The translations under genes and the position numbers were made by a program. From a virus, in IMG/VR virus record IMGVR_UViG_3300017991_000064, positions 32,001 through 96,000 of that record: a stretch of 64,000 bases of DNA; one strand, 5' to 3'. Below are positions 10,211 through 56,333 of this stretch, one piece after another. Each line of letters starts with the position of its first letter. The stretch's first letter is position 1. The notes under the pieces are model-generated. The model was not told where the DNA came from and did no database searches. It saw nothing but the letters and a program-made list of their open reading frames with translations.

Positions 10211-11506
10211 ATGGAAGAAGTTAAACTTATCGTTGTGCTATTTTTGCTGATGCGAAGAAAGATTAAGGTCAGTCAGTACATCAGCAAGATTAGATTACTA
10301 CCAACCGAAATTCTCACAACAGAGTTCATAGAAAGTCTTCGAAAGAGTAATGCTAGGAAATTTCATGATCTCAAAACAAAATTCCTGGAGTACTATTCAA
10401 CCTGGGAATGGTACGATGATGAACTAGAAGTGAACTATGTAATAGTTAAAATGCGGAAGATGTACAAGAAGTACAGAAAACATTCCGATGATTACTTGCT
10501 TACCTTCGTAAAAGAAAAGTTCCAATCTTTAATTATCAACCATACTAACCAACAATTGCTAGAAGGTCATGATCTGGATAGACGATTCCAAATCCTTGAG
10601 CAGGGACATTCTTTAATCAAAGAATTTCGTGATGAGAAAAGAGCTAGGCAATCTCTAGACCTCAGTGATATGGAGCAGGTTAAAGCCTATGAAAAAGAAC
10701 TTAAGAGTAGGAAAGAAGAGATAGACTTCCGCATCAAAACTAAGTGGCCTACTCTGGATCAATACTTCTCTAATGGAACAGATCTTGGCTTAGCTTGTAG
10801 AAGGATCGTACTGTTATTCGGTATTGCTAAACGTTTCAAAACAACACTCATGTACAATGCTGCCCTAAGAGCTTATCACCAAGGATACAATGTTAGATTC
10901 TATACCCTGGAGATGTCTCTCGAAGATATCTTTGAGAAGAGCAAACTCATTGTTAATCCCATCGCGTTAGCCAAGGTAAAGAAAGATAAGGGAAGAAACA
11001 ACTTCTTCAAGGTCGAATACTATCCATCATACACCTTTGGTTTATCTAATCTTAACCAGGATCTTCAGAATGATAAGGATAAAGGGAATCCCACACATTG
11101 GGTTGGTATAGATTACATTGAGGTTATGTTTCATCGATTATTCACTACCCTTCGAAATTCGAGTGATAAGAGATTTGGAATTAATCAGCTCTACTACGGG
11201 CTCAGAGACTCAGTTAACTATTACAACTACATGCTCTGGACTATTTCACAGGCTAACAGAGGAGCAGTTAAGAAGAAAGGGAAGGCTGCAGAAAGTGGAG
11301 ATATCGCAGAAGATTGGTCTAAGGTGGCTGCTATCGATTACCTTCTCTCAACAAACCAAACACCTGACCAGAGAAAAGCCAGGATCATTATGTTAAAACT
11401 TCTAGAGTCTAGGTGGACAGATTGGGATAAACTCAAAACAGATGAGCTTTTCCTAAAGTATAAATCACCAACCCTTCTCTTCAAAGAGATTGTATCAAAA
11501 TTATAG
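10211..11506 (+). CDS. DnaB-like (SF4) replicative helicase
   Basis: GIAKRFKTT, YTLEMS, IDY, WTISQANR and a DIAED..K..ID motif. Confidence 0.85.
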   Translation: MEEVKLIVVLFLLMRRKIKVSQYISKIRLLPTEILTTEFIESLRKSNARKFHDLKTKFLEYYSTWEWYDDELEVNYVIVKMRKMYKKYRKHSDDYLLTFVKEKFQSLIINHTNQQLLEGHDLDRRFQILEQGHSLIKEFRDEKRARQSLDLSDMEQVKAYEKELKSRKEEIDFRIKTKWPTLDQYFSNGTDLGLACRRIVLLFGIAKRFKTTLMYNAALRAYHQGYNVRFYTLEMSLEDIFEKSKLIVNPIALAKVKKDKGRNNFFKVEYYPSYTFGLSNLNQDLQNDKDKGNPTHWVGIDYIEVMFHRLFTTLRNSSDKRFGINQLYYGLRDSVNYYNYMLWTISQANRGAVKKKGKAAESGDIAEDWSKVAAIDYLLSTNQTPDQRKARIIMLKLLESRWTDWDKLKTDELFLKYKSPTLLFKEIVSKL

Positions 11507-22557: not shown

Positions 22558-22923
22558 ATGAACTTTATCCGGGTAGGTTTTCATTTCATGGTGGACAATG
22601 CGATCCCTATCCTTTACATTCTTCTTGCTCTCCATATCTTTCTAACTACCCGAAGAGTCTTTTACTTAGAGGGTAAGATTCGAGAGGTGGAAATTAACCT
22701 GGAAGATGTTAAGAGACAATTGGATTACTACGTTGTCTCCACCGCTGATTTCGAGAAGTTCAAGAGTGAAGTATATCTGATTGTGGACAACTTCTCAAGG
22801 TACCAGGAAATAACACGTAGAAGTAACGGAAAGTTGAGTCACCGGGGGTTAATGAATTTTCTCAAGAGTCAGCTCGAGATAGAAAGCTTACAGGCCAAAT
22901 GTGAAGTTAGTGATGATGATTAG
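22558..22923 (+). CDS. Hypothetical membrane-anchored coiled-coil protein
   Basis: N-terminal hydrophobic segment. Last + strand gene; it overlaps the stop of the convergent gene. Confidence 0.55.
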   Translation: MNFIRVGFHFMVDNAIPILYILLALHIFLTTRRVFYLEGKIREVEINLEDVKRQLDYYVVSTADFEKFKSEVYLIVDNFSRYQEITRRSNGKLSHRGLMNFLKSQLEIESLQAKCEVSDDD

Positions 22924-23360
22924 AATCTAAAGGTGAATGAAACACTCTTCTTTCCATATTCAGTTCCAAAGGGGCTTACGACATTCCCAAGTTGTAAGCC
23001 TTCTTTTTTGTGTAGTTTGGTTAGGATTCTGTTCTCAAGGTGTGATGTAATACGATCACTCATCTCCAAACTCATTTCACGTCTCAATGATCTCTTCAGA
23101 TATTTTCCAAAGGCACCTAATCCCCTTGTCTTCATTTCGTATCTATGGTTCGTAATATAATCACCCGTTGCACTACACCAATGCTTTAACCTTTTGTACA
23201 TTACAAGTTCGGTAGCAGTATAGTATTTAGTAGCTCCACTTTCATCTGCTCTCTTCATCGCTTTTGTCGCTACTCTTATGAATTGTGTAAATATCAGTAG
23301 TACAATTAGATTGAAGTAATTCACAAGTACATCATTTAATAGATCACCAATTAATTCCAT
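22920..23360 (-). CDS. Hypothetical membrane protein
   Basis: N-terminal TM segment and a GGGGG RBS. Confidence 0.5.
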   Translation of the reverse strand: MELIGDLLNDVLVNYFNLIVLLIFTQFIRVATKAMKRADESGATKYYTATELVMYKRLKHWCSATGDYITNHRYEMKTRGLGAFGKYLKRSLRREMSLEMSDRITSHLENRILTKLHKKEGLQLGNVVSPFGTEYGKKSVSFTFRF

Positions 23361-23372
23361 TCAAACCCCCCT

Positions 23373-23449
23373 TGCCAGAATGACAAAACAGTACCAAGAT
23401 TTCATTTGTTAGGTTTACCAGTGGAAATCCTTAACTTAAATCTCAACGA
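23373..23449 (+). repeat. Dispersed ~78-bp intergenic element, copy D
   Basis: TGCCAGAATGAC...CAGTGGAAATCCTTAACTTAAATCTCAACGA. Its 3' half matches copy C. Confidence 0.7.
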
Positions 23450-23643
23450 CCCATATAGGGAAAAATTTGACCCTTTATTTTATCCCCTTTTCTCCTTCTC
23501 TTTAATTTCCTGGTGGTCATCCACATTGAGATCATTTGAATTACTACCATCGCTGAGACAAGAATGGTTCCACCCATAAGAATGTAAGCAATGGTTTTGA
23601 GACTCCATTCGAGTTCAATTATTGTCATCATACCTCCTATCAA
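23443..23643 (-). CDS. Small single-TM protein with basic C-terminus
   Basis: Hydrophobic helix followed by RKLKRRRK. Confidence 0.45.
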   Translation of the reverse strand: MIGGMMTIIELEWSLKTIAYILMGGTILVSAMVVIQMISMWMTTRKLKRRRKGDKIKGQIFPYMGR

Positions 23644-23645
23644 CG

Positions 23646-23676
23646 GAAATGGGATAGAGAATGAACTCTATCCCAT
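23646..23676 (-). terminator. Hairpin / terminator after the holin-like gene
   Basis: ATGGGATAGAG/CTCTATCCCAT 11-bp perfect stem with a short T tract. Confidence 0.6.
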
Positions 23677-23716
23677 AACCATGCTCCAAAATATCGTAAC
23701 GTATGTACGACCTGAA

Positions 23717-24181
23717 TCAGTTACCGATGTTGTTCACCTTGAACACATTCTGTTCCACTAGATGCTCAATGTATGCACCGGTATCACCCATGAACTTATC
23801 AAGGAGATCCATCTTTTCCTTACCAAGAATTCTCTTGGCCTCGCTGATAACATTCTGTTTGATGACCTTCTTCTCTGCATCGGTTACCTTAGCACCACCA
23901 TCGCTATCAGGTGCCTGGGCTTTCTTGTACTCCTTAACCAATGTTTGTTCTGCTGACATGACCAAAGTTTCGATTAGTTCAGCCAGGTCCAGCTTGGTTT
24001 CGTAGTACTGTATCTTCTCACCCTGTGCCTCTGCGGCAGCTTTCTTCGCTTCCATATCTTTCTCATAGGTATCAACGTATTTCTTCACCTTTGAGGAGAT
24101 CATGGGAAGAAGAACAATAATAGCTGTTTTGATCAACCAGTTCAGTACGAGACTAACGGCCTCTGATGATAGCCATTCCAT
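23717..24181 (-). CDS. Holin-like protein (LL-H type)
   Basis: One N-terminal TM segment, V.SAEQ, and IE.LVE..V C-terminus. Lies downstream of the endolysin. Confidence 0.55.
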   Translation of the reverse strand: MEWLSSEAVSLVLNWLIKTAIIVLLPMISSKVKKYVDTYEKDMEAKKAAAEAQGEKIQYYETKLDLAELIETLVMSAEQTLVKEYKKAQAPDSDGGAKVTDAEKKVIKQNVISEAKRILGKEKMDLLDKFMGDTGAYIEHLVEQNVFKVNNIGN

Positions 24182-24236
24182 TGTGTTCACCTCCGTTTAT
24201 GTATGTAATCTAATGGTTTACTTATGATTCCTTGTG

Positions 24237-24461
24237 TCACCTCCGTCCCATGTAATATTTGCATCTAATGCATCTTCCTTTCTGTTTATCCTTTAACCCT
24301 TTCCTAAAGTTCCATTTGCCACAATTGTTGCATTTCCGCATGGTAGCTCTTTTCTTAATGGCCCACTTCAAAGAACTAAATGGCGCTTTCACAATTCCTA
24401 CAACTAGATCCTTCGGACTAATGAAGATTCCATGCCCTCGTCTATTGTTAAGAAATTTCAT
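24237..24461 (-). CDS. Small Zn-ribbon protein
   Basis: CNNC...CIRC, basic composition. Confidence 0.5.
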   Translation of the reverse strand: MKFLNNRRGHGIFISPKDLVVGIVKAPFSSLKWAIKKRATMRKCNNCGKWNFRKGLKDKQKGRCIRCKYYMGRR

Positions 24462-25033
24462 TCCTTCCCCTCCTTTACGAACTTGGGAAGATAGATAAGA
24501 TTCAATTTGTTGATTCGATTACTAACTCCGTAGTAGATACTATAGGTCCATATCCTCTTCCGTACGAGAGCAATGTTGTATTTATCTCTCATGTCATTAA
24601 AGAAGGCTGCAAATCTTTCTACAACAACATTGCTGTAATGATCCTCTCCTCCCAAACAATCTTCTACCGCCTTAAGTGTAATGGGACCTATGAGTCCATC
24701 CATTCTTAGCTGAAGGTCATACTTAATGTTGAGACATTGTTGCATGAGACGAATGGATGTATGTGGTGATGCATTGTAGGCAAAGTCCATTACACAGATA
24801 TCTAACCCTGATGGTAACTCTGAGCATTTGGCCTTTTGCCATCGTGGCATGTATACCTCCTCGAATACTGTTGACATCCTCAAGGTTTTATTCTTAATCT
24901 GTTCAGCATACTGAGGATACGCTCGTGATGAAACGCCATACATTGTTGTGCCACCTGGATCATCAGGATCATTACTCCAGTATCCCTCAAATTCCATTAG
25001 AACCGGCCAAAATTTCTTTTCGTTCCCTCTCAT
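24458..25033 (-). CDS. Endolysin, glycoside hydrolase family 108 with PG-binding domain
   Basis: EGYWSNDPDDPGGTTMYGVS, D.AYN and DGLIGP.T. Confidence 0.9.
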   Translation of the reverse strand: MRGNEKKFWPVLMEFEGYWSNDPDDPGGTTMYGVSSRAYPQYAEQIKNKTLRMSTVFEEVYMPRWQKAKCSELPSGLDICVMDFAYNASPHTSIRLMQQCLNIKYDLQLRMDGLIGPITLKAVEDCLGGEDHYSNVVVERFAAFFNDMRDKYNIALVRKRIWTYSIYYGVSNRINKLNLIYLPKFVKEGKE

Positions 25034-25055
25034 TGTGTCACCTCCATTTTATGTT

Positions 25056-25511
25056 TCATTCTGGTGTAAACCATTCTTTTATGATTTTTGACCAGGTAAG
25101 TTGATTACTTTCATTAGGCATTCCCATCACTAGATTCGTATGGTGTGAAAATAATTGGAGATACATATTATAAAGTGTGGTGGAATACATAAGCACTAAT
25201 GATCTGGGATTTAGCATGATAAACTGATCTAGAATAAATAGATCTGCCTTAACCTCATCCTTACTAAAATTCATCTCATGGGTCATAGCTGTTGAGATAA
25301 TTAATAGGTTAGGGTGGGAATCGGTAGCTTCATATATTGTATCAAAACGTTCAATCTCAAACTGTAGATTACAATTGATGGAACATACTTTGAGAAGTTT
25401 TAGAAAGAATTTGTAGTCTACATAGTCATCATACAAATCATCATAACCAGATTCAATAAAAACAGCAGTTCTGATAGAACCATTGGATGTTTCATTCATA
25501 ATGTTTAACAT
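25056..25511 (-). CDS. Hypothetical protein, possible degenerate receiver fold
   Basis: AVFIE...HPNLLIIS...LVLMYS strand spacing resembles REC, but the phospho-acceptor Asp is missing. Confidence 0.35.
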   Translation of the reverse strand: MLNIMNETSNGSIRTAVFIESGYDDLYDDYVDYKFFLKLLKVCSINCNLQFEIERFDTIYEATDSHPNLLIISTAMTHEMNFSKDEVKADLFILDQFIMLNPRSLVLMYSTTLYNMYLQLFSHHTNLVMGMPNESNQLTWSKIIKEWFTPE

Positions 25512-25575
25512 ATCACCCCCATGATAATGGTAATTTTTAATACCTACCGAATTTCTGGGGCGATAGGAATAGCGG

Positions 25576-26271
25576 TTATATTTTTATCTGCCGTTTCCTA
25601 CGCTTCTTCTTTTTTCTCTTCTTTCCAACCCCGATACCAGGTGGATCCTTGTGTACAGCATAGTAACCTAAGGCTATGGCATCTGCTGTATCATGAGGAA
25701 ATTCATCAGGGTCTATGTCATACTCTGATGAAAGGATGATCTTAACAACCTGCTTAACCATGATCTCTTTTCTGAGTTTCTTATCCCTTAACTGATACTT
25801 CTTTGATTTGGATGAAAACTCTTTGGGAATCATAGCTCCTATATGTCTACTCTTAGCTGATGGTCCTACCTTAATCAGTTTCACTCCTGGAAAGTAGAGG
25901 TGGAAGAGTGAGAAGTAGAGACCATTGAGTTCAGCTAGTTGTGAGAGAACTTTCCTACCTAAGGTATAAATGTAGTCATCAATATATACTCTTGTGATAT
26001 TAGCATAGTGCTTTTTGACTGTAGAGATCCATCGGCGAATCATTCTGATGATAATCTCAGGTGTCATTCTCGAGACTCCTAATTCAACCTCTTTATCGAT
26101 CTCTAGGTTCTCGAAATGAATTGTGTAATGATCATAGTATGGTTTACGATCTTTCTTCCGTTTCTTAAGATTCAGATAACCAAAGTCAACGATTTCCTTG
26201 GTGTCCCAATCGAATATCGCAAATCCCATGTTATTCAAACCAGTATCTACCGCTAATACTAGATTACTCAT
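25576..26271 (-). CDS. RuvC-like Holliday junction resolvase
   Basis: LAVDTGLNNMGFAI, VYIDD, P...K and HDTADAIALG. Confidence 0.8.
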   Translation of the reverse strand: MSNLVLAVDTGLNNMGFAIFDWDTKEIVDFGYLNLKKRKKDRKPYYDHYTIHFENLEIDKEVELGVSRMTPEIIIRMIRRWISTVKKHYANITRVYIDDYIYTLGRKVLSQLAELNGLYFSLFHLYFPGVKLIKVGPSAKSRHIGAMIPKEFSSKSKKYQLRDKKLRKEIMVKQVVKIILSSEYDIDPDEFPHDTADAIALGYYAVHKDPPGIGVGKKRKKKKRRKRQIKI

Positions 26272-26272
26272 A

Positions 26273-26414
26273 TTGCCTCCGATGCTGTAATGTGGATGTA
26301 ATGATCATAATAAAAAGAGAGGATACCTGCTCAAAACCAACGATTCATCACAGGTATCCACAATACGGTAGGTGACAAACGAACCAAACCATTGATCGGA
26401 GGCAAAACGACCAT
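26273..26414 (-). promoter_or_regulatory. Structured leader: anti-SD stem, terminator-like hairpin and 27-codon ORF
   Basis: 11-bp inverted repeat 26273-26283/26395-26405 covering the GGAGG RBS. 9-bp stem GGATACCTG/CAGGTATCC followed by TCTCTTTTT. ORF at 26414-26331. Confidence 0.5.
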
Positions 26415-26921
26415 TTAGATCTGTTCATCATCCGGTAGGAAAACATTTTCAATTGCTGAAATGGAGGCCTCGATTCGTGAAGCCATAGATTGGGCCTTGT
26501 CCATCATCTGTTCTCCGTTAGTGATTAGATCAAGAGCATTCATTATTCTTTTATGAACCTCACCCATATGAGCATTCTTAGGAATAATGGTAATACAATT
26601 TCTACCTCGTAGTTCCTCGAGTATGAAACTTTCTGAAACACAAGTGTAAATAACAACTGGGGTGGTTACTCCGGAGTCACGAAGTTCAATGAGAAAATCC
26701 AAGCCAGCTCTACTGTTACCATTGATTCGGATATCGAGCACCAGAAGATCATGTGTCTGAACTTTCATACACTCTCTTGCAGTGAGAACATCCATTGCCC
26801 AATCTACCTGGAGCTTTGCATAATCATCTGGTACTATTTCCTCCAGATATCTTGTCCAGATTCTTCTCATAATGTGTTCATCTTCCATGAATAGGATACG
26901 ATATTTTCCATCCTTTGTCAT
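26415..26921 (-). CDS. Stand-alone response regulator receiver (CheY-like)
   Basis: ILFMEDE, DLLVLD(63)IRI, AGLDFL, PVVIYT and IIPK. All catalytic positions are present; there is no DNA-binding domain. Confidence 0.85.
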   Translation of the reverse strand: MTKDGKYRILFMEDEHIMRRIWTRYLEEIVPDDYAKLQVDWAMDVLTARECMKVQTHDLLVLDIRINGNSRAGLDFLIELRDSGVTTPVVIYTCVSESFILEELRGRNCITIIPKNAHMGEVHKRIMNALDLITNGEQMMDKAQSMASRIEASISAIENVFLPDDEQI

Positions 26922-26932
26922 AGTTTCACCCC

Positions 26933-27373
26933 TTAAACTCCAATGAAATACTTAATTAGAAGTAGAGAGACAGCACCAAGGATACCCCAAAGATACTTGG
27001 AGAAGTGTTCCTTAAAACGATGCTTCTTATCTTCCTTAGTCTCTCTAGCTTCAGTATTCTTTTGTACCTTCTGAAACAGGTCGAACTCGTTAATCTTTTC
27101 CATTAATGCACATTGTCCGGTCATACAGGTATGCATCTGTTTCTTTTCAAGGTCTCTAAGAACCTGACGAACAGATTTCTCAAACATCTCAATGTTGTGC
27201 TTGATGTTGGTAAACTCTAGTTCGTCATCTTTACTCTGCAATTCCATCTGATGAATCTTATTTTTAAGAGCCTCAATCCCCTCAAGGAGTTTTTCTAGTC
27301 TTTCAGGTAACCCTGACATCTGACCCATGAATTGATTCATCTTATCTTGTATTGTAATAGGATCACCTGGCAT
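26933..27373 (-). CDS. Coiled-coil protein with C-terminal TM helix (holin-like)
   Basis: Coiled coil followed by YLWGILGAVSLLLIKYFIGV. It is the first gene after the fibre genes. Confidence 0.5.
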   Translation of the reverse strand: MPGDPITIQDKMNQFMGQMSGLPERLEKLLEGIEALKNKIHQMELQSKDDELEFTNIKHNIEMFEKSVRQVLRDLEKKQMHTCMTGQCALMEKINEFDLFQKVQKNTEARETKEDKKHRFKEHFSKYLWGILGAVSLLLIKYFIGV

Positions 27374-27408
27374 TCTAGCTATCCTCCTTTTCTTTCGTCT
27401 GTAGTTGT

Positions 27409-27441
27409 AAAGGGGGGGGCCAGCCCATTAGACCGGCCCCT
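27409..27441 (-). terminator. Terminator after the giant repeat protein
   Basis: GGGGCCGG/CTGGCCCC stem followed by CCCTTT. Confidence 0.6.
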
Positions 27442-27455
27442 GGTAATTCATTCCG

Positions 27456-30400
27456 TTACGGGTTACTTGCTTCTGTTGCCGTCCATGTTATTTCTCTTGA
27501 ACCACCAGTATTGTCAACAACATAGTAAATGAACCCATCTTTATCAGCTTCCTGAACCCCAAATGAGCCACCTATATACATCCATGACATACCACTGTAA
27601 TATGATTTGGGAGTAATGGTAACTATAACATCATCACTACCAAATGCAGTGCTAAAAGAAACTTCTGTTGTTGTGTATGTACCCATACTGGCATTTATCT
27701 CATCTGTTCCACTCTTGACAGTAGGAATCACAAGTTCAACATCATCAATCTTGTATACACCAGTAATGTTGATATTACCGTCCACATCAAGAACTTCAGC
27801 AGGTGCAAGATCATTGATACCAACCTTACCCCCCATGATTGCCATAGTGCTTGCTTGTGTAAGTGTCGGTGTTGTATTATAGTCTAAACTGAAACCAATT
27901 GAATACTGAGCATCTGAATCCGTAGTACCTACAATTATTCCGGCTCCTAATGCTATAGAATTTGCACTTCTAGCCGTGTTAGATGCTCCCAATGCTACAG
28001 AATTTGCACCAGAAGCAGTTGACCCGCTTCCAATTGAAAGTGAATAAGCACCAGTAGCATCAGCCTGATTGCCAACAGCAAATGAGTATATGCCAGATGC
28101 TTTTGTGTTATATCCCAACGCATTGGAAAGAAAGCCGATATTGGCATCATCCCAGTCTGTAGATGAACTACGACCTGCTCTAAAAGCTCCTTTTGACTTA
28201 TCAAAGAAAAATCTATAGTCATGGTCAGAATCACCATCATCGGCAAGTTGCGGTGAACCCCATACAAAATCATCAGTTGAATATGTTACTTCACTGGAGT
28301 TTGCCCTGACAACAGTACCGGCTTTTTCCCAGTATGAAGTTCCACCGCCACCGGCAGCAAGTTCAGCAAGGGTTTTATCCCCTGTAACTCCGTCTGATAG
28401 TACAAGATTTCCACTGCCATCTTGGAATAGGTCAAATGAGCCAGAACCACCATGAAATGCCGTTGCTTCAATAGTTCCTGAAACTTCCAGTGTTCCAGAT
28501 GGGGGGTTGATTGTATCTGACCTCAAGGCTGTTGCTTCAACAGTACCACCTACAGAAAGCTCATATGAGGGAGTCAGGTCTGCAATACCAACCTTACCTC
28601 TCATAATTGCTAAAGTATTGTCCTGAGAAAGAGTTGAAGATGAAGCAGCAAGATTGATAAGCATTGAGTTATCTGCACTACTATCAACAGTAGCATTACA
28701 ACCCAAAGCAACACCATTACCCCCGTTGGCATTATTACCATAACCAAGAGCAACACCGCCCCAACCTGCAACCTCACACTGATAACCGATAGCAGTTGCA
28801 TAATTGTTTGTAGCCTGTGACTGATACCCCATAGCTACAGCAGCATCAGCGGTAGCATCAGAAGCATATCCAGCGGCAAAAGCATAACTGTCACTGGCAG
28901 CACAATCATCACCGAAAGCAGCCGACCATGATCCTCTGTTAGCATCATCCCAATTCACAGAGTTACAGTACCCAGCCCGGAAAGCAGCTTTACTATCATC
29001 AAAGAAAAACCGCCTGTCTTTGGTTGCGTGTATCTGTCTGTTAAGTGTTGGAGAACCAAACACAAAGTCATTATTGTAGGTTGTATCTGATTCCCTGACC
29101 ACATCTGAATCTTCCTCAAAGACACCACCTGCTACTGCTTCACTTGTCCATTCTCCAGAAGCATCATCATAGGTTAAAACATCATTATCAGAAGGATTTG
29201 ATACATCTACATCAGATAGATCATCAAGTGTTACTGATGAAAGTATTGTATTAACCTCATCCGTTAAACCTACATACTGACCCTCAAGATAAACAGCTTT
29301 CAAAGTACCTTCGACTTCGACTGATCCGGCATTAAGATAAAGTTTTTGATTTGCTACACTATTATCAAAAATACCGTAAATCAATGAAGTATCACGAGCG
29401 TTTGATTCACTATCACGAGGATAAATGTCAATAAAGAGTTTATTACTCCCCGTTTCATAATACCCTGCATCATTACCAAGAAAGATATTATTTGATCCGG
29501 TAGTGTTAGTATAACCAGCACGATAACCTAATGCTGTATTAGCATTACCAGAGGTAATATTTGTCAAGCTATTATACCCGATTGCAGTATTTTTATTACT
29601 ATTACAATCAGCTAATGCTAATGAACCTATAGCTGTATTCTCATCTCCGGTGGTCACAGTATTTAATGAGTTATAACCTACTCCAACATTACTGAACCCC
29701 TCGGTGATTTCCGTTCCAGCATAAGCACCTATTCCGGTATTATTATAGCCACTGGTAACATCTTGTAGAGTATAGCTTCCGATACCTATATTGCTCTGAC
29801 CCGTTTGAGTAAAATTACCAGCCTGAACACCAAGAAATAATGAAGACCCAGAACCTGTGTAAGTATGAAGCAATCTTTCACCATTCTGGGATATAACTCC
29901 TACATATTGCCCTGATGTAGTAGGTAAACTTGCATATCCAGTAATTTCAAGAGAATCAACCTTAACATTGCCAACATTATTATTGACAATATCATCTCCA
30001 TCAGCATCCCAATATGTAGTACCTGCTACTGCTTCACTTGTCCATTCTCCAGTTCCAGAGTCATAAACAAGAGCCTCACCGTCCTCTGGGGAAGCAACAT
30101 TGACATCACCAAGATCATTCAAGTCAAGATCAATAGCAGCAATAGCGGTTTCGATTGTGGAATCCGCTTCCGCTTTGGTATAGGTTTCTGATTCAGTGTA
30201 ATAACGATTGTCCAACTGTCCATTGTCAAGTTCCGTCTGCGTGTAAACCTCTGTAGAGTTGTAACTGTAAGAATCTATTACACCTTCAATCTCGGCATCC
30301 GTTCTGATCTTGCCATCAATGACAGCCTGAGAGTAGGTATATGCTTCGATGGTACTGTCTGTTTGAGCTTTAGTATAAGCATCAACAGCAGGAATAACCT

Positions 30401-55676: not shown

Positions 55677-56333
55677 CTATGGTGCATCCCAATGAATTGT
55701 TTCATCGGTAACATGAAGTGCACCAAGATAAAGATCAACATTAATGTGTTTGATCTGCTTCCAAGCTTGAAGTTTTCTTATATATCCTTCCACCTCCATC
55801 GTTGTATTTATACCAAATCGATAACCTACATTGTATTCATCTCCTTCTCGATTAATATTAAGGTTATCAGCGTAGGTTAGCCAATAGAAGTACCAAAAGT
55901 CTGTGTACTCGGGATCCTGAATACAGAACTTATTCTGATCCTCCTGGTTGATATCATTCCCAGCAAACATGATCTCCAACATAAAATCATCCAGCATGGT
56001 CATATCATCAGAGAGTATGTTAAGGTCATACTCAACCAGTACTGGAAGTAATTTTACAGCAGGTGGGAGATCACCTGGATCGTACACTGCTGTCAACTCT
56101 TCTAATGATGCACCTGAGTGAACCATTGGGAAATTGGCAGCTTCTGTCATCTTCCTAACACCAGTTTTTCTGAACCAGAAGATAGGAAACTGTTTGTTAT
56201 CATACTGAGCTAAAGCTTTTCTTAATGCTGTCTCACTCTCAGCATAAACAACCTTAGGTGGATTCCCACAAGTTCCAGGAACACGAATTGATTCGTATAT
56301 CTGCCTAATTTCATTATTGATCAGTAGGAACAT
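55677..56333 (-). CDS. Tail terminator / completion protein (gp15-like)
   Basis: FP...F...PV.VEY.L.I...VEG pattern and position. Confidence 0.55.
   Translation of the reverse strand: MFLLINNEIRQIYESIRVPGTCGNPPKVVYAESETALRKALAQYDNKQFPIFWFRKTGVRKMTEAANFPMVHSGASLEELTAVYDPGDLPPAVKLLPVLVEYDLNILSDDMTMLDDFMLEIMFAGNDINQEDQNKFCIQDPEYTDFWYFYWLTYADNLNINREGDEYNVGYRFGINTTMEVEGYIRKLQAWKQIKHINVDLYLGALHVTDETIHWDAP

Follow-up and report, generated by a model that had tools for sequence, protein, structure and literature searches.

The DNA analysed here (the window, 64,000 nucleotides) comprises bases 32001-96000 of IMGVR_UViG_3300017991_000064, a 106,874-bp record of an uncultured virus in IMG/VR that CheckV rates as 100% complete. 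Its minus strand carries a lysis region in which the gene of a stand-alone receiver domain (REC) directly follows the gene of a membrane-anchored coiled-coil protein (TMcc). In transcription order, this pair lies behind a tail-fibre gene and ahead of genes for a RuvC-like resolvase, an acidic protein of 151 amino acids (aa), a GH108 endolysin, a zinc-ribbon-like protein, and small membrane proteins (Table 1). A preliminary description of the locus had listed seven minus-strand open reading frames (ORFs), from TMcc to a holin-like protein, and the ORF list confirms their coordinates and order; two further small membrane proteins, of 66 and 146 aa, had been left off and are added here.

The receiver and its membrane partner

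Judged by its sequence, the 168-aa gene product is a genuine, catalytically complete, orphan stand-alone receiver. It matches the Pfam receiver profile PF00072 with 46.9 bits (cut-off 30.2; E 3.6e-12) over profile positions 1-110 of 111, and with 47.1 bits when the whole genome is scanned with this profile. No output domain is present, PF00072 being the sole Pfam domain within the 168 aa and the C-terminal 45 residues forming a single helix. The active-site residues, assigned by alignment to the solved receiver 5lwk and by an alignment of the receiver family described below, are complete, with E13 and D14 after beta1, D63 after beta3, T93 after beta4, and K115 after beta5, and they bear out the intact single-domain response regulator (ED, D63, T, K) that the preliminary description had proposed. 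The AlphaFold2 (AF2) model, built on a 22-sequence alignment, reaches a predicted local distance difference test score (pLDDT) of 93.9 and a predicted template modelling score (pTM) of 0.82 and adopts the canonical (beta-alpha)5 doubly wound fold, with strands at residues 7-12, 37-42, 59-62, 89-93, and 111-114 and helices at residues 16-29, 45-54, 72-82, 97-104, and 119-161. Specifically, the last of these, alpha5, is lengthened to 43 residues as one continuous helix. A Foldseek search with the model returned the receivers of PhoP, KdpE, ArlR, PorX, and RssB at a probability of 1.0, with root-mean-square deviations of 2.6-3.1 from those of PhoP, KdpE, and ArlR.

The phage genome supplies no evident phosphodonor for this domain. 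HATPase_c, HisKA, and histidine phosphotransfer (Hpt) domains gave no match at E<=1 across the complete 106,874-bp genome, and the control searches with the same three domains matched 14, 13, and 11 of 14 control genomes, respectively. The lack of a histidine kinase, first claimed for the window, extends in this way to the whole genome, and since neither a kinase nor an Hpt protein is encoded there, phosphorylation of REC would be possible only from host donors.

The family to which REC belongs is small. An exhaustive HMMER search against 1.84 billion cluster representatives gave only 84 matches at E<=1e-3, and the best of them form a group of single-domain receivers of 126-165 aa with the same C-terminal helix, all of metagenomic origin, the family as a whole spanning 126-174 aa; one of these members, P0002, is 40% identical to REC (2e-21). 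The hallmark of the family is a GxNC motif (G106-x-N108-C109) in the alpha4-beta5 loop of the receiver, of which the Asn-Cys at residues 108-109 is near-invariant. Of the 13 members aligned, 12 retain D63, all have T or S at position 93, and 11 retain K115, and the second acidic residue is variable. A single cellular ancestor of the receiver was considered and is not supported, the next-best matches being ordinary cellular regulators whose outputs (AraC, GGDEF-EAL, sigma-54 AAA+, CheB, and hybrid kinases) are unrelated. Scanning IMG/VR and 185,579 prokaryote genomes with a degenerate DNA pattern for GxNCxT[VI]xPK identified in IMG/VR one true member, in record IMGVR_UViG_3300009149_005829 (hereafter L005), and four chance matches; the 47 matches in the prokaryote genomes include no real family member, a result that applies to the exact motif. 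A second DNA pattern, G-x-[WY]-[IV]-PACFYT, gave no match, and for REC, TMcc, and the 151-aa protein alike, word-index searches retrieved nothing beyond the proteins of the window itself.

The partner, TMcc, consists of a coiled coil of about 120 residues followed by a C-terminal transmembrane (TM) segment at residues 127-146 according to hydropathy, and it matches no Pfam or PHROG family. Its gene has a strong Shine-Dalgarno (SD) sequence, its stop codon lies 11 nt ahead of the REC start, and the SD of REC begins within those 11 nt. In L005, the protein encoded upstream of the receiver is a homologue of TMcc (BLASTP 1e-13). REC and TMcc are a co-expressed two-gene module, with its genes 11 nt apart, that is bracketed by structured intergenic regions and travels with lysis genes. 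The preliminary description had named the holin-like proteins as partners with which to model the receiver, and this choice is to be replaced, as the tight partner is the tail-anchored coiled-coil protein encoded immediately upstream. A further reading of TMcc, as a phosphotransfer protein of the DHp or Hpt type, was rejected because the window and L005 proteins have no conserved His in common and neither Hpt nor HisKA gave a match.

Recurrence beside lysis genes in other phages

Six contexts of such a pair were retrieved, namely the window, L005, a Joint Genome Institute (JGI) metagenome contig (L002), and three Alteromonas phages, the myovirus V22 (MN877442), whose receiver ORF30 was reached through a fold search of BFVD, the podovirus A5 (Schitoviridae, OP481051), and the siphovirus PB15 (KX982260). 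They correspond to about four independent lineages. In 6/6 of them, the gene immediately before that of a single-domain receiver encodes a single-pass membrane protein whose coiled coil is cytoplasmic, and lysis genes lie next to the pair. Absence of a link between receiver and lysis genes in relatives had been set beforehand as the refuting outcome, and the link held in every retrieved context. The cytoplasmic location of the coiled coil is predicted in each case from the charges flanking the TM segment, the positive-inside rule being the established basis for deriving membrane topology from such charges.

The gene orders vary around this constant core. L005 encodes a fibre protein homologous to that of the window, a 131-aa tail-anchored coiled-coil protein, a receiver 42% identical to REC, an abutting GH108 endolysin, and a homologue of the 157-aa protein of the window. 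L002 encodes, in this order, an M15-type peptidase, a coiled-coil protein of 146 aa that ends in a hydrophobic anchor, and the receiver, and a fibre-like gene lies farther upstream. The order in V22 is fibre, chaperone, papain-like amidase, ORF29 (a weakly hydrophobic N-terminal anchor plus coiled coil), the receiver ORF30, an i-spanin, an overlapping lipoprotein o-spanin, and a holin-like protein with two TM segments. A5 encodes gp10, the receiver gp11, an overlapping i-spanin/o-spanin pair, a holin-like protein with two TM segments, and the endolysin; its gp10 is homologous to V22 ORF29 (1e-11), and its receiver is 45% identical to that of V22. Lastly, in PB15, a gene for a multi-TM protein precedes those for a tail-anchored coiled-coil protein of 101 aa, the receiver, annotated as a 'response regulator' (64 bits), a Peptidase_M15_3 protein (50 bits) whose gene overlaps the receiver stop, and a GTA_holin_3TM protein (60 bits). 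The receivers of V22, A5, and PB15 keep the DD, D, S/T, and K residues. No kinase domain was found above cut-off in V22 and A5, whose genomes are complete, or in the L005 record. Inside an 854-aa ORF of A5, record positions 55928-56161 give a sub-threshold HATPase_c-like match (18.2 bits, E 1.5e-4), which is probably another GHKL-type ATPase and not a histidine kinase.

Across these contexts, the endolysins comprise GH108 enzymes, M15-type peptidases, and a papain-like amidase, and the carriers are of the myo-, podo-, and siphovirus types, a mixture that speaks for a link to the process of lysis and not to one enzyme. If about 5% of the gene slots of such genomes touch a lysis gene, four independent coincidences would be expected at about 1 in 10^5, a rough estimate made with no formal test on a non-systematic sample.

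The partners display two further features. A TCxxxxC motif with a nearby His is common to TMcc (residues 81-88) and to the L005 partner (11075-11470, minus strand) and is missing from the L002 partner; together with the Asn-Cys of the receiver, it could form a metal or redox site at the partner interface. Moreover, V22 ORF29 (L055 5370-5747) and A5 gp10 (L056 4631-4999) have weak N-terminal anchors, rich in Gly, Ala, and Ser and below the standard hydropathy threshold, that resemble segments of the signal-anchor-release (SAR) or pinholin type.

Neighbouring genes, RNA signals, and source genome

The features of the lysis region are collected in Table 1.

Table 1. Genes and RNA features of the lysis region, in order of transcription (window coordinates)
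Feature	Position	Strand	Evidence or context
Hairpin, 11 bp, G+C-rich	27416..27440	(-)	Directly 3' of the 1545-aa tail-fibre gene, before the membrane-partner gene
TMcc, 146-aa tail-anchored coiled-coil membrane protein	26933..27373	(-)	ORF and hydropathy
Stand-alone receiver (REC), 168 aa	26415..26921	(-)	PF00072 match
Structured intergenic leader, 143 nt	26272..26414	(-)	RNA fold
RuvC-like Holliday-junction resolvase, 231 aa, lysine-rich tail	25576..26271	(-)	phrog_159, 1.9e-9
Acidic 151-aa protein, no family	25056..25511	(-)	ORF
GH108 endolysin, 191 aa	24458..25033	(-)	PF05838, 55.2 bits; phrog_315, 3.9e-25
Zinc-ribbon-like CxxC...CxxC protein, 74 aa	24237..24461	(-)	ORF
157-aa protein, N-terminal TM and charged helical C-terminal domain	23717..24190	(-)	Weak phrog_36209 'holin' match, 5e-4
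66-aa single-TM protein, basic C-tail	23443..23643	(-)	ORF and hydropathy
146-aa protein, N-terminal hydrophobic segment, last of the minus-strand block	22920..23360	(-)	ORF and hydropathy

The label of RuvC-like resolvase, already given in the preliminary description, agrees with the phrog_159 profile match, which spans residues 5-226; Pfam gave no match to this protein. The 151-aa protein had been suggested to be a pseudo-receiver, and a search for the receiver domain in it and in REC had been recommended. Such a search was positive for REC, by PF00072 and by fold; the 151-aa protein has no Pfam match, PF00072 included, no PHROG match, and no homologue, its hhalign probability against the REC family is 0.3%, and its structural neighbours are mixed. 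Specifically, the neighbours of its ESM Atlas model include receivers (template modelling scores of 0.6-0.68) as well as GATase, B12-binding, and other flavodoxin-like folds, VIA-align gives Z values of 5-6.4 to many generic alpha/beta folds and of about 5 to receivers, and the single-sequence AF2 model is poor (pLDDT 47). The protein probably has an alpha/beta doubly wound fold, and the predicted alternation of strands and helices is compatible with a receiver-like fold lacking the Asp and the Lys. Homologues of the RuvC-like and 151-aa proteins were not found in the L005 record, a fragment that is 29% complete; because both genes are absent from that position in L005, they are likely an insertion into the module in the window.

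The GH108 assignment of the endolysin stands on the PF05838 match, above its cut-off of 21.2 bits, and on the PHROG match; the enzyme is 29% identical to the GH108 protein of L005, and a C-terminal PG_binding_3 domain (PF09374) scores a weak 19.3 bits, below cut-off. The 74-aa ORF contains the CxxC...CxxC pattern announced for a zinc-ribbon protein and matches no Pfam or PHROG family; its product is very basic, with a net charge of +20, and the ORF shares 4 nt with that of the endolysin at the junction of start and stop (ATGA). It is an unusual endolysin companion.

The 157-aa protein had been described as holin-like. Hydropathy places its TM segment at residues 9-33, and the holin label draws only on the weak PHROG match listed in Table 1; the C-terminal domain is predicted to be cytoplasmic from the flanking charges, and a 153-aa protein in the equivalent position after the L005 endolysin is 27% identical to it. 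It is a putative holin-like or lysis-accessory protein. Its identification as an i-spanin is unlikely, given the predicted cytoplasmic C-terminal domain and the failure to find an o-spanin: no minus-strand ORF within 22800-27500 bears a lipobox. Recognisable spanins thus seem to be missing from the window cassette, in contrast to those of V22 and A5. The 66-aa protein, with a TM segment at residues 15-44, a net charge of +8, and only sub-threshold Pfam matches, is a holin candidate at least as good as the 157-aa protein and more like a classical small holin. The 146-aa protein that closes the block matches no Pfam or PHROG family.

Both flanks of the two-gene module are structured at the RNA level. 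Upstream, the 11-bp hairpin is present in both the minimum free energy (MFE) and the centroid folds, has no proper U tract, and belongs to a 106-nt stretch with a z of only -1.05; it may serve to stabilise a 3' end or to terminate transcription weakly. Downstream, the leader between REC and the RuvC-like gene folds at -52.7 kcal/mol (z -4.65), and 0/200 shuffles are as stable. In the predicted fold, UUGCCUCCGAU, directly 3' of the REC stop, pairs with AUCGGAGGCAA, which bears the SD of the RuvC-like gene, and this pairing fits co-transcription and translational coupling at a distance. The same leader has an AUG directly after the UAA of the receiver and an internal hairpin followed by a U-rich run, and a sigma-70-like hexamer pair lies within it at 26334-26307. 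It may act in translational coupling or as an attenuator.

At the scale of the genome, the late block extends along the minus strand from the head genes, through two very large fibre genes, to its end at about 22920, where the replication block of the plus strand converges on it; a plus-strand terminator-like hairpin is located at 22971-23002. By PHROG matches, the genome encodes a PolA-type polymerase, helicases, a tail sheath, and a major head protein, the last only about 30% identical to its counterparts in SPO1-like and Maribacter phages. Searches of 50,697 phage records, by blastn with the region and by tblastn with REC, detected no close relatives. Peptide-pattern scans of IMG/VR with REC, the major capsid protein (MCP), the RuvC-like protein, P0002, and P0003 gave no match, nor did the P0003 pattern in JGI metagenomes. 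A temperate lifestyle was ruled against, as the genome has no tyrosine integrase. On these grounds, the genome is that of an orphan, probably virulent, myovirus-type phage. The first 100 bases of the record occur again 231 bases before its end, which points to a short terminal repeat or to an assembly closed into a circle, yet IMG/VR classifies the record as 'linear, no end repeats'.

A proposed role in lysis timing, rival explanations, and known systems

Lysis time sets the burst size and the fitness of a phage, and, to our knowledge, few sensory inputs to lysis timing are known, namely the superinfection-driven lysis inhibition of T4, N4, and ICP1. Solely from its gene context, the REC-TMcc pair is read here as a membrane-tethered phospho-switch that modulates holin triggering or lysis timing in an antiholin-like manner, with a rough probability of 0.45. 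In such a switch, the receiver would dock, via its alpha4-beta5-alpha5 face and its long helix, onto the cytoplasmic coiled coil of the partner, and D63 would receive its phosphoryl group from the host, through acetyl phosphate or a host kinase or Hpt protein. Phosphorylation would then alter the membrane complex and bring holin triggering forward or delay it, and the module would time lysis like a signal-gated antiholin, according to the physiology of the host. The earlier proposal of a receiver embedded in the lysis region and reliant on host phosphodonors stands as a statement of anatomy, through the synteny in 6/6 contexts and the genome-wide absence of a kinase; of its functional part, the timing of lysis through host phosphosignalling is carried over into the switch, at the probability just given, and the use of the receiver as a phosphate sink into a rival explanation.

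Several observations weigh against the switch. Within the family, some members are degenerate, P0004 carrying G in place of D63 and R in place of K115 and P0085 an 'EP' acid pocket, and from members with a degenerate acid pocket or without the Asp it follows that phosphorylation is not universally required. In the window, the RuvC-like gene, the 151-aa gene, and the structured leader with its promoter-like site lie between REC and the endolysin gene. The partners of the different lineages are alike in architecture and have no detectable sequence similarity, and the search that retrieved the six contexts was non-systematic. Furthermore, the slot behind tail-fibre genes is a common site of accessory cargo.

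This last point leads to the explanation that REC is accessory cargo apart from lysis, a signalling or PhoB-like gene in the variable slot between fibre and lysis genes that would act on host metabolism or transcription. Published annotations favour it, the V22 paper listing CDS-30 as a class II auxiliary metabolic gene (AMG) for signaling (PMC7289586) and the R8W paper regarding the homologue G48 as a regulator of the PhoB type with a role in low-phosphate adaptation (PMC8228385), and in the window the resolvase and the 151-aa gene share the slot. However, the 168 aa hold no DNA-binding or output domain, which rules out a PhoB-like role as such, and neither the obligatory pairing with a membrane protein nor the positions inside the cassette, as between the amidase and the spanins of V22, would be expected of random cargo, which leaves this explanation rather improbable.

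The intact active site, the absence of a phage kinase, and the membrane-anchored partner would also suit a membrane-tethered phosphate sink or decoy, which its partner would keep close to host sensor kinases and which would drain or block host two-component signalling (e.g. envelope stress, motility) late in infection and would not touch the holin directly. Single-domain receivers do serve as phosphate sinks in some chemotaxis systems. PIT4 is a phage protein that perturbs host two-component systems (PMC10714779). A sink would nevertheless leave unexplained that the pair lies directly against endolysin, spanin, or holin genes in 6/6 contexts, and members with degenerate pockets would be poor sinks, so it is considered unlikely. 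Another explanation is a phosphorylation-independent adaptor that would work like a pseudo-receiver, in which the receiver fold and its helix would be a protein-protein module that assembles or stabilises the lysis membrane complex and the Asp would be vestigial or structural. The second acidic residue is variable, P0004 has neither the Asp nor the Lys, the GxNC motif of the alpha4-beta5 loop belongs to the face that receivers usually use for interactions and not to the active site, and pseudo-receivers are common in bacteria (PMC12632262). What counts against the adaptor is the retention of D63 (12/13), T/S93 (13/13), and K115 (11/13) in the family and of the active sites in V22, A5, and PB15, since conservation of D63, T93, and K115 is expected if phosphorylation matters; the adaptor is accordingly thought quite unlikely.

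Extended beyond this genome, the phospho-switch would represent an undescribed class of lysis control, in which a kinase-less, coiled-coil-tethered receiver gates the holin according to the state of host phosphodonors or kinases; the module would have spread among phages of aquatic bacteria, of the myo-, podo-, and siphovirus types, and would swap freely between endolysin types, and this generalisation is put forward more tentatively than the switch itself. Full-text literature searches gave no paper tying a phage receiver domain to a lysis cassette. If true, the switch would provide a direct read-out of the host energy or signalling state at the lysis decision, and the current annotation as 'PhoB-like / signalling AMGs' would be corrected. 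The proposal is testable, as three cultured Alteromonas phages (V22, A5, and PB15) carry the module.

Among known systems, the stand-alone regulators CheY, Spo0F, DivK, and CpdR are like REC in having one receiver domain, a complete DD/D/T/K set, and no enzymatic or DNA-binding output; single-domain regulators of this kind work by contacting other proteins, and acetyl phosphate can phosphorylate many of them. REC differs from them in being phage-encoded and kinase-less, in its 43-residue alpha5 and its GxNC motif, and in its membrane coiled-coil partner and its location in a lysis region. The closest arrangement is that of V22 ORF29/ORF30, A5 gp10/gp11, and the PB15 pair, with the same two genes beside endolysin, spanin, or holin genes and receivers of about 125-150 aa. 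These receivers are only about 11-14% identical to that of the window and lack GxNC, and the partners in V22 and A5 are anchored at the N-terminus, whereas that of the window is tail-anchored.

Regulators acting on holins offer a functional parallel. The T4 holin T with its antiholins RI and RIII exemplifies how small proteins linked to the cassette shift lysis timing upon a signal. In N4, the regulator gp62 acts on the pinholin gp63 (PMC12642591); the 'receiver domain' of this N4 lysis preprint is a region of the gp63 pinholin and not a REC fold. T4 RI/RIII and N4 gp62 resemble the proposed switch as small lysis-region proteins that act on a holin, partly from the cytoplasmic side, and delay or trigger lysis. 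They differ from it in that they have no sequence or fold relation to REC and in that their signal is superinfection, as opposed to the host phosphorylation state proposed for REC. Lastly, the LytSR system of Staphylococcus regulates the holin/antiholin-like lrgAB and cidAB and so joins phospho-signalling to membrane proteins of this type. LytR, however, is a DNA-binding, transcriptional regulator with its own kinase, while the phage REC has neither a DNA-binding domain nor a kinase, and for this reason any control exerted by REC must be post-translational.

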